Translations under genes and position numbers: made by a program
Notes under the pieces: generated by a model
Told to the model about the DNA's origin: nothing
What the model saw: only the letters and a program-made list of their open reading frames with translations
The model's database searches: none
In this document: piece by piece, positions 182 through 4,504 of the stretch
Layout of the letters: every line of letters starts with the position of its first letter
Numbering within the stretch: the first letter of the stretch is position 1
Assembly (NCBI GenBank): GCA_049598495.1
Contig: JBMYNR010000006.1
Span: forward strand, 1 to 58,057
Source: Opitutales bacterium
GTDB lineage: Bacteria; Verrucomicrobiota; Verrucomicrobiia; Opitutales; Coraliomargaritaceae
Length of the DNA stretch: 58,057 nt
Reading direction: 5' to 3'

Positions 182-2980
<2,799 letters not shown>

Positions 2981-3006: not shown

Positions 3007-3391
3007 GGAACCGCGAATGGACGCGAAGAGACGCGAATGATTCAGAATGATTTTCGAGAACGATGCGTTCCCATTCTAGCTTTGGGCGCTTGAAATTTAT
3101 GATGAGTCCGACTTTGAGTCCGGTGATTTTCAGATAGTTGAGCATCTGGCACGTTCGATATTTCTAATCTGATTGATGACCTTTGTATCCACGATGACTG
3201 AGCCGAAAGCAATGAGGTCGGAGATATACTCCCCAACCTCCACGGTTTTGTAAATGACGTTAAAACGTTCCTATTGTGAATAAGCGATCTGACGGGTTCG
3301 AACTCAACGACGAGTGAGTTTTCATATGGTTTCTCGTGCTTTGCTATTAGGCCCATCAAATTCGCGTGTCTTCGCGTCCATTCGCGGTTCC
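3007..3391. repeat. 32-bp inverted repeat pair (3007-3038 / 3360-3391) enclosing a GxxExxY pseudogene
   Basis: Left arm GGAACCGCGAATGGACGCGAAGAGACGCGAAT matches the reverse complement of the right arm, GGAACCGCGAATGGACGCGAAGACACGCGAAT, at 31/32; each arm has three CGCGAA units 10 bp apart. Confidence 0.93.
3056..3338 (-). pseudogene. GxxExxY family protein (PD-(D/E)XK-like), degraded
   Basis: Manual translation across frames gives HEKPYENSLVVEFE / RQIAYSQ*ERFNVIYKTVEVGEYISDLIAFGSVIVDTKVINQIRNIER / QMLNYLKITGLKVGLIINFKRPKLEWERIVL; two frameshifts (~3295, ~3150), TAG at 3273-3271, N-terminus missing. Confidence 0.88.
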
Positions 3392-3403: not shown

Positions 3404-4504
3404 TTACAGGTTGGCCAGAACGGCGTCGCCCATGGCTTTTGTGCCAACGGCGTCGAGGCCGAAAGCGATGTCGCCCGTGCGAGTGCCAGAGGTAACGGCC
3501 TTTTCTACGGCTGCCTCGATAGCAGCGGCGGCTTCGAGTTCACCGAAACTATAGCGGAGCATGAGGGCGCCTGAGAGAATCTGTGCACAGGGGTTGGCTA
3601 TGCCTTGTCCAGCGATATCCGGAGCGGTCCCACCGGAAGGCTCATAGAGACCGAATGGAAAACCTAGACGGTTCTTATCTTCACCCAACGAAGCGGAGGC
3701 GAGCATTCCAAGAGAGCCACAGATCACGCCCATTTCGTCGGAGAGGATATCACCAAACATGTTTTCGGTAAAGAGGACGTCAAATTGGTTTGGATCGCGG
3801 GCCAGCTGCATAGCGGCGTTGTCGACATACATGTGGCTAAGTTCAATCTCGGGGGCATTCTTTGCGAAGTAATCGCTCACGACCTTGCGCCAGAGAACGG
3901 ACGTCTCAAGCACGTTGGCCTTATCAACCGAGCAGACGCGATTGCCCCGCGCCTTGGCTGTGTCGATCGCGACCTGCGCAATGCGCTCGATCTCGCTGGT
4001 CTTGTAAACCATCGTATCGATGGCCTGTTCTTCGCCGTTTTCGAGCGTTGTTGTGGATTTTGGCTGACCAAAGTAAATACCACCTGTCAGTTCACGAATG
4101 CAAACGATGTCGATGCCGTTCGGGATACGCTCCTGCTTGAGTGGAGATGCATCCGTCAATTGTGGGTAAAGTAGTCCCGGGCGAACGTTGGCATACAGGG
4201 AAAATGCCTTACGAATTGGAAGTAGAGCAGCACGCTCTGGCTGCTCTTTGGGTGGAAGGGACTCCCACTTTGGGCCACCAACAGAACCGAAGAGAATCGC
4301 TTCAGAGTTTTCGCAGATCTTTTGTGTGCTTTCCGGGAAAGCGTTGCCATGATTGTCGATAGCGATACCGCCGATGTCGGCATACTCATATTCAAGCGCG
4401 AAGCCGAATTTATCGCCAGCGGCTTTAAGTACATCGAGTGCGACGTCCATGACTTCAGGGCCGATCCCATCGCCGGGAAGAACTGCAAATTTTATGGTAT
4501 TCAT
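3404..4504 (-). CDS. leuB: 3-isopropylmalate dehydrogenase
   Basis: LPGDGIGPEV, VDKANVL, NMFGDILSD, EPSGGTAPDIAG; start placed at ATG 4504 (MNTIKF). Confidence 0.97.
   Translation of the reverse strand: MNTIKFAVLPGDGIGPEVMDVALDVLKAAGDKFGFALEYEYADIGGIAIDNHGNAFPESTQKICENSEAILFGSVGGPKWESLPPKEQPERAALLPIRKAFSLYANVRPGLLYPQLTDASPLKQERIPNGIDIVCIRELTGGIYFGQPKSTTTLENGEEQAIDTMVYKTSEIERIAQVAIDTAKARGNRVCSVDKANVLETSVLWRKVVSDYFAKNAPEIELSHMYVDNAAMQLARDPNQFDVLFTENMFGDILSDEMGVICGSLGMLASASLGEDKNRLGFPFGLYEPSGGTAPDIAGQGIANPCAQILSGALMLRYSFGELEAAAAIEAAVEKAVTSGTRTGDIAFGLDAVGTKAMGDAVLANL

Follow-up and report, generated by a model that had tools for sequence, protein, structure and literature searches.

A periodic-arm cassette with a broken GxxExxY gene at a leuB–alaS junction whose occupants are exchanged as whole alleles

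Intervening sequences of 23S rRNA, which hold an ORF within an inverted repeat inside a conserved transcript, are excised by RNase III. REPIN/RAYT systems combine a single-copy nuclease gene, an HUH Y1 transposase, with its own dispersed extragenic inverted doublets of palindromic repeats (PMC3116915). Free-standing homing endonucleases of phages are small nuclease genes lying between conserved genes (PMC2988022), and the homing enzyme I-Ssp6803I is of the PD-(D/E)XK type (PMC3424549). Horizontal-transfer hotspots free of mobile genetic elements turn over alleles between two core genes (PMC5635113), and intergenic TAACTGA heptamers have been described as direct repeats with a proposed translational role, a mobile repeat-binding protein being one option that their author raises (PMC4679880). 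For PF13366, the protein family of the gene reported below, many transfers are noted and the function is given as unknown (PMC3424549).

Here we describe an inverted-repeat cassette between leuB and alaS in a 58,057-nt stretch of DNA from a marine Opitutales bacterium (Coraliomargaritaceae; GCA_049598495.1, contig JBMYNR010000006.1, positions 1 to 58,057; hereafter the window), and find that the occupant of this junction is exchanged as a whole allele between strains, species and genera. Cassettes that move by replacing the occupant of the same spot are apparently an undescribed kind of selfish DNA; in the literature searched, mainly the main texts of freely readable journals, no account turned up of GxxExxY or four-helix-bundle genes flanked by such arms.

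A broken GxxExxY gene between inverted arms

The two window arms, each 32 nt long, are complementary at 31 of 32 positions and separated by 321 nt, with CGCGAA units starting at 3012, 3022 and 3032 and mirror units at 3361, 3371 and 3381 (Table 1). Their local inverted-repeat score is 59, compared with a top score of 22 among 200 shuffles, and a codon-shuffled genome control gave one inverted repeat of at least 36 in 862 kb. leuB, the cassette gene and alaS all lie on the minus strand, the cassette starting 12 nt past the leuB stop codon (3404-3406) and ending 26 nt ahead of the alaS ATG (2980). A sequence-only reading of the window had reported a 31/32 inverted repeat with three CGCGAA units at 10-bp spacing, together with these distances and this co-orientation, and the arm coordinates and shuffle scores bear it out. 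No sigma-70 site or terminator was found at the window arms, and an Rfam search of the window element returned no match. An 11-pair hairpin within the dead cargo (3214-3240, minus strand) scored as terminator-like.

Profile searches against the families which that reading had named identified the cargo: PF13366 matches at 3139-3303 and 3062-3163, both above the family cut-off, and TIGR04256 matches the same pieces at E 2.5e-6 and 1.8e-7, below its own cut-off. The gene keeps its start codon (3381), which lies within the upstream arm, and about 12 N-terminal codons; what is missing is an internal piece of ~59 nt after ~3343, which takes out the G of GxxExxY. Further damage consists of two one-base deletions (~3295 and ~3150) and a TAG at 3271-3273, making three frameshifts in all because the internal deletion also shifts the frame. 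The earlier description of this gene was thus right about the family and the TAG, and wrong in counting two frameshifts and in taking the N-terminus to be lost. Judged by its sequence, the window copy is a pseudogene, with no intact frame carrying the GxxExxY motif. The TAG is absent from the X5 allele of the cassette.

Table 1 Features of the leuB–alaS junction in the window
Feature	Position	Strand	Evidence
leuB, isopropylmalate dehydrogenase family, upstream host gene	3404..4504	-	PF00180 E 5.9e-132 and ORF
leuB last ~25 nt, presumed to travel with the cassette	3404..3428	-	X13/X4 joints; mismatch burst in close pairs
Upstream arm: AACC and three CGCGAA(T/G) units, 10-bp period; cargo ATG at 3381 inside	3360..3391	-	
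GxxExxY gene N-terminus, about 12 codons retained	3344..3381	-	Alignment with intact homologues L027, L170
~59-nt deletion site (near 3343), then ExxY piece in shifted frame	3297..3343	-	Alignment with intact homologues
Nuclease-core piece, D and DxK kept; frameshift near 3295, TAG 3271-3273	3150..3296	-	PF13366 match, one TAG
C-terminal piece (QxxxY ... GLIINFKRPKLEWERI) past frameshift near 3150	3040..3149	-	PF13366 match 3062-3163
Downstream arm, repeats the upstream arm in inverted orientation; single C-C mismatch; T>G change mirrored at 3028/3370	3007..3038	+	
alaS first 9 codons, synonymous variant; presumed travelling tract	2955..2980	-	X13 contig comparison
alaS, alanyl-tRNA synthetase, downstream host gene	182..2980	-	PF01411 E 4e-183

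The nearest relative of the window cargo is that of L195 (257 of 319 nt), whose host alaS is 75.5% identical, and hosts at 87-88% alaS identity to the window carry other cassettes. Counting positions that do not vary among six intact relatives, the window has changed at 2 of 47 in the arms and 6 of 148 in the cargo, an equal rate; the earlier impression of intact arms around a decayed cargo therefore holds for indels and fails for substitutions. The two arm changes mirror each other (3028/3370), which suggests a single arm-to-arm copying event. The window cassette is probably a dead, decaying passenger awaiting replacement.

An intact homologue from the same junction scores 128 bits on TIGR04256, and the cargo matches PF13366 only. 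The structural model of the intact homologue (pLDDT 93) is a minimal PD-(D/E)XK core whose best structure matches are BpuSI and Cas4 SSO0001 at Z 7.6 (rmsd 2.9 over 95 and 3.9 over 102 aligned residues, respectively), with Hjc at Z 6.4 and lambda-type exonucleases also among the nearest folds (Z 6-7.6). None of these stands out, and nothing in the structure search reached Z 8 or Foldseek E ≤ 0.001. E36, Y39, D75 and K87 are invariant in 103 homologues, and Q99 and Y103 nearly so. With the modelled fold, the E...D...(D/E)xK residues and QxxxY of PD-(D/E)XK enzymes, the intact homologue is a putative nuclease. T7 endonuclease I appeared in a PDB sequence search at E 0.5, which is not evidence, and that search found nothing significant. 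The family is very large (35,842 clusters at 50% identity, E ≤ 0.001) and rare on plasmids (6 of 72,556), and searches of limited sensitivity found no relatives in viral contigs or annotated phages. Many of the top representatives (P0001-P0046) are 250-295 aa long with two tandem GxxExxY domains, which hints at a dimeric working unit.

The leuB–alaS occupant is exchanged as a whole allele

We took alaS start regions from 90 genomes (30 loci of 40 matches and 60 of 64 further matches), and the slot census covers the 87 of these with leuB upstream in the same stretch. A protein-based scan gave mostly distant alaS loci, with leuB upstream in 6 of 80, and was excluded from the tree. Across the census, 31 slots hold a GxxExxY gene, 20 a four-helix-bundle gene (assigned by TIGR02436) with 7-bp arms, 1 another ORF and 35 no gene; the gene-less slots comprise 4 with arms only, 14 with remnants and 17 in which the spacer is short, the extreme being genes that overlap by 4 nt. 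Relatives of the window do, then, have the empty or near-empty alleles that the sequence-only reading had suggested looking for. All 52 cargo genes are co-oriented with their hosts. By a crude test 12 of the 31 slot GxxExxY genes, about a third, are broken (L166 and L193 being borderline), and in intact ones the ATG lies within the upstream arm. Full-length near homologues number 24 among 101 family genomes, one per genome, and 20 of them sit at leuB–alaS. The metK–ahcY, gatA–gatB and pheS–pheT junctions vary likewise and are less often filled.

Several spacers have features of their own. The single other ORF (L031:1043-1441, plus strand; 132 aa) lies within 9-bp periodic arms, constituting a third cargo type, and has no Pfam or NCBIfam match. 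The 824-nt spacer of L015 carries the four-helix gene end, right arm and first 21 nt of alaS in triplicate, joined through ~10-nt microhomology. In L164, L181, L195, L035 and L239, extra arms of another type are stacked beside the current cassette, apparently from earlier occupants. In L033, where no leuB lies within 1.5 kb, heptamers of the four-helix-arm type are greatly expanded 500 nt upstream of alaS and form longer repeats.

On a host tree built without the 45 nt adjoining the junction, for which changes are unrooted and bootstrap support is not fully settled, the six slot states need 33 changes against a shuffled mean of 48, indicating some clustering of slot states. Starred branches require a minimum of 16 changes for GxxExxY and of 11 for four-helix cassettes. 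The slot GxxExxY genes form about five groups (5 changes versus 24 shuffled) on a quick tree of 115 columns from which five short rows were excluded.

We compared close host pairs chosen by hand, six with different cassettes and nine same-spacer controls. Four of the six showed a burst of mismatches within the last 19-25 nt of leuB: 9 mismatches in its last 30 nt in L018/L019 (hosts 1.1% apart, different cargo families; p 3e-11) and 5 in L167/L168 (hosts 1.3% apart, different cassettes; p 4e-5), P values that are overstated because the genomes are related, as well as 12 at the leuB end in L154/L160 and 11 in L149/L155, with 6 more in the alaS start. The other two pairs showed no significant burst (p 0.18 and 0.42), and the controls were flat in seven of nine cases and weakly raised in two. 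Pooled over pairs that are not independent, mismatch in the last 15 nt of leuB was 0.355 for 55 different-spacer pairs versus 0.113 for 13 same-spacer pairs. At gatA–gatB, a GxxExxY and a gene-less allele differ by 10 mismatches in the last 40 nt (one event), compared with 0-4 in five same-spacer pairs. The C-terminal codons of leuB are loosely constrained, which counts against reading the burst as exchange, and short tracts are also what back-crossing leaves behind an ordinary double crossover.

Other alleles come from within the species of the window. A strain in run X13, ~99% identical in leuB and alaS, departs from the window sequence at 2954 and rejoins it at 3429, and a contig from run X4 has its joint at 2954/3426. 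The X13 alaS start is a synonymous recoding, with 10 differences in 26 nt versus 6 in the preceding 455 nt (counted by eye), and the window's own variant of alaS codons 7-9 recurs in four other hosts. The cassette lacks cover in runs X8 and X13, which alone proves nothing. One contig from run X5, single and of low depth, joins 3029 to 3368 on opposite strands, that is, an interior inversion with its crossover in the arms; none of the 52 cargo-bearing slot alleles has inverted cargo. Metagenome contigs, searched for exact matches, yielded no near-identical strain. The 3' part of the window leuB is 80-84% identical to its nearest hosts versus 87-89% for alaS, possibly marking a longer imported tract.

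In L191, three units stand head to tail, each made up of 40 nt from the leuB end, then a cassette, then 37 nt from the alaS start. Re-entry of a circle, or of a linear piece with ends ~47 and ~56 nt beyond the arms, would be expected to give such an array. This flank-containing array is one case in 112 spacers, comes from an assembled genome and may have arisen by illegitimate duplication or in assembly; the L015 repeat looks like a microhomology duplication. Around GxxExxY arms, the diagnostic differences that lie farthest out are 35-55 nt away, and L018/L019 have a few more mismatches to -54. We found no target-site duplication in 66 loci, and the direct repeats in 3 of these were all neighbouring repeat copies. 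Because the boundaries of exchanged and dispersed copies lie 15-55 nt beyond the arms, the element does not end at its arms. The leuB-end bursts and the flank-carrying L191 array show allele replacement through short flank homology rather than an insertion sequence bounded by its arms, and crossovers in the conserved gene ends put the moving unit at the cassette together with ~20-55 nt from leuB and as much as ~37 nt from alaS.

Arm repeats, dispersed doublets and further cassettes

The consensus of 63 distinct arm pairs opens with AACC and continues with three RCNRAT cores in a 10-bp period, spelled AACC(RCNRAT-NN-A)x3; the two arms together act like six copies of one protein-type heptamer, CRCNRAT. 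A 9-bp period in five arm pairs corresponds to one protein clade, and arm type clusters on the protein tree (18 changes versus 33 shuffled). These patterns show the arms as arrays of one putative heptamer site that follows the lineage of the cargo. In other genomes, 67 of 80 close homologues had a flanking inverted repeat scoring at least 28, versus 0 of 78 displaced controls; only 9 of the 80 sit at leuB–alaS. An enrichment of periodic repeats around homologues had been put forward for checking by the sequence-only reading, and together with the empty alleles it supports that reading's minimal, transposase-less mobile cassette. What it missed is that the moving unit extends past the arms and that the slot is shared with unrelated four-helix-bundle cassettes.

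Arms also occur without a gene. Genomes with a full-length near homologue (24) have a median of 8.5 further arm hits versus 1 in the other 77, and the dispersed arm type matches the slot gene type in 19 genomes, mismatches it in 5 and ties in 6; counter-cases are 13 genomes that have at least 8 arm hits, one of them 113, and no full-length near homologue. Gene-less doublets of the putative sites are thereby shown to be dispersed in genomes with the cognate gene. Fifteen short doublets that we inspected measure 78-164 nt, 11 of them lie within 37 nt of a stop codon, and their loops match neither cargo. Both within-genome pairs compared (15 stretches) share 15-40 nt beyond the arms. In genome G073 (L399, L400; 1.9 Mb), with 113 arm matches, near-identical gene-less 140-nt doublets occur, and the query used found no full-length near homologue. 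The window genome has no dispersed arms of the cassette type beyond its own two.

The window genome (1.75 Mb) contains 10 GxxExxY loci. At 7 of them an inverted repeat outscores every shuffle, and the unit sequence differs from locus to locus; the other 3 have no significant inverted repeat. It also has nine four-helix-bundle matches, several with 6-7-bp periodic arms. All 33 long neighbour ORFs found beside the 18 other cassettes are co-oriented, and the named neighbours are mostly housekeeping genes (metK, gatA, pheS, trkA–trkH, gyrB–gyrA, and nuo and glutamate synthase subunits). Like most control genomes, the host has ComEC and DprA. Contigs C1, C2, C3, C5, C7, C9, C15, C20, C23 and C24 carry several short, classical REP-like hairpin families and four Y1 transposase hits (PF01797), both separate from the arm cassettes; the four hits lie on contigs other than that of the window.

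Candidate mechanisms and relation to known systems

On our best reading, the cassettes are a family of small selfish arm–GxxExxY–arm units at housekeeping-operon junctions, REPIN/RAYT-like in kind and with a homing-like, site-faithful spread. That the nuclease binds its cognate arms and cuts nearby, feeding host recombination, is the best explanation we can offer, and we give it about an even chance of being right. An intact PD-(D/E)XK protein would bind its three-unit arms as DNA and cut at the arms or some tens of bases outside them. The freed piece, with short homology at its ends, would re-enter the same junction in other cells via host recombination following DNA uptake, yielding site-faithful spread, tandem arrays and inversions, and rarer illegitimate events would seed new junctions and gene-less doublets. 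The main weakness of this nuclease mechanism is that four-helix cassettes, which have no nuclease, turn over at the junction with identical breakpoints; swapping therefore does not require the nuclease. A bolder version, which we consider rather unlikely, posits a class of self-targeting mobile DNA: each small protein (GxxExxY, four-helix or other) would read its own arms, the nuclease would excise the cassette ~45-55 bp beyond them, and the piece would home to the same junction across genera and displace rivals, with gene-less doublets and four-helix cassettes exploiting or resisting the process. If true, two very large uncharacterised families would gain a function, and intergenic heptamer repeats would be explained.

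The junction may alternatively be a passive micro-hotspot, an account that we rate as plausible in outline and on balance improbable. Host double crossover in the flanking core genes would move the alleles, selection on cargo (for example, for defence or regulation) would drive their turnover, the arms would be self-operators and the nuclease would play no part in movement. All the swap signatures fit the hotspot model independent of mobile elements, as outlined in PMC5635113; the four-helix cassettes, which lack a nuclease, swap equally; and an ATG inside the upstream arm of intact slot genes suits an operator. This account nevertheless leaves unexplained why gene-less doublets follow the resident gene type, why one genome holds multiple copies of them and why at least five separate GxxExxY lineages entered the slot, and 12 broken copies among 31 are unlike a gene under steady selection.

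Free-standing intronless homing seems considerably less probable. Here the nuclease would cut a recipient leuB end or spacer that is recoded in the donor, repair would copy the cassette, and four-helix and gene-less alleles would be immune. The nuclease fold with its invariant catalytic residues, the co-conversion of the flanking gene end (seen in four of six close pairs at leuB–alaS and in one gatA–gatB event) and the cycle of gain, decay and replacement all fit, and an intergenic position with co-conversion is among the marks described in PMC2988022. Against it, homing assigns no role to arms that co-vary with the protein and disperse; proteins 60-70% identical sit at many unrelated junctions, so that no conserved host target is evident; and the unrooted host tree gives no direction of replacement.

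An RNA intervening sequence is a poor candidate, to which we attach a small probability. The arms would pair in the leuB–alaS mRNA and loop out the cargo, to be cut by RNase III or to stabilise the message, with the stem selected after gene death, much as the sequence-only reading had suggested in proposing that the stem is retained as an RNA processing or stability element. The predicted stem is strong (z = −5.98), the neighbours of the 18 other cassettes are all co-oriented, the sister cargo family PF05635 is named for the 23S rRNA intervening-sequence protein, and the mirrored 3028/3370 change could be compensatory. Against this, mismatches read on the transcribed strand are not enriched in G-U, with 60 G-U versus 85 A-C in 63 GxxExxY arm pairs, and 14 versus 33 in 17 four-helix pairs. 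Wobble-type mismatches are somewhat commoner on the non-transcribed strand (85 versus 60; 33 versus 14), among loci that are not independent. Concordance at the two variable core purines is 0.93 from one arm to the other and equally high for unpaired units and for units within an arm (n = 58), so core covariation is not register-specific, and the arm spacer positions are nearly independent between arms. In the window, arms have diverged as fast as cargo; many relatives run the operon without a stem, and there is no Rfam match. RNA runs, in the form of contigs, contained at most 0.10 of the sequence words of the stretch. We therefore rejected stem retention. Concordance in all registers is instead consistent with the other role that had been suggested for the arms, as phased, putative binding sites, and the arm patterns would fit sites read by a protein on DNA rather than a selected RNA helix. 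Least credible is a degenerate IS or MITE with the arms as terminal inverted repeats and a transposase in trans: the element is bounded by inverted repeats, measures ~385 nt and has internally deleted and gene-less derivatives, yet it carries no transposase, shows no target duplication in 66 loci and is single-copy per genome with orientation and site fixed, and its apparent breakpoints, 15-55 nt outside the arms, largely refute this reading.

Cutting at cognate arms, the explanation we prefer, can be addressed at this locus, which offers a cognate-arm substrate, alleles that compete in nature and a cut zone predicted to lie 35-55 nt beyond the arms, making GxxExxY function directly testable with one 15-kDa protein and 150-bp DNA. 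More generally, junctions between essential operon genes can be re-used slots in which unrelated cassettes replace each other and, in doing so, rewrite the terminal codons of the upstream gene; this has implications for pangenome hotspots and for gene-end phylogenies.

Among known systems, 23S rRNA intervening sequences share the ORF within an inverted repeat, and PF05635/TIGR02436 is the alternative cargo here; the present slot is an mRNA operon junction, and its statistics show no selection for an RNA stem. Like free-standing homing endonucleases as described in PMC2988022, the cassettes place a small nuclease gene between conserved genes, with flank co-conversion and frequent decay, whereas they are chromosomal rather than phage-borne, have repeat arms and share their site with nuclease-less competitors. 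The hotspots of PMC5635113 likewise show high allele turnover and recombination in the gene ends with no integrase or transposase, all of which we found at leuB–alaS; relative to that account, the slot here is a one-gene, ~0.5-kb site within an operon, exchange crosses genera with tracts of tens of bases, and each occupant is boxed by periodic arms. The TAACTGA repeats are also heptamer arrays in housekeeping operons near start codons with a patchy distribution, and the gene-less gatA–gatB allele of L240/L242 has units related to them, whereas the part of PMC4679880 drawn on here does not connect them with inverted pairs, with cargo genes or with the swapping of alleles. The likeness to REPIN/RAYT, as described in PMC3116915, lies in a single-copy nuclease gene with its own dispersed extragenic inverted doublets, the doublet type following the gene, which we see in relatives of the window. 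The differences from that description are that the partner is a GxxExxY PD-(D/E)XK protein instead of an HUH Y1 transposase, and that each arm is three tandem non-palindromic units instead of a palindrome. Unlike REPIN/RAYT in the same account, the cassette gene sits inside the doublet and is exchanged horizontally at a fixed junction, and an unrelated cargo family, the four-helix bundle, uses the same design.
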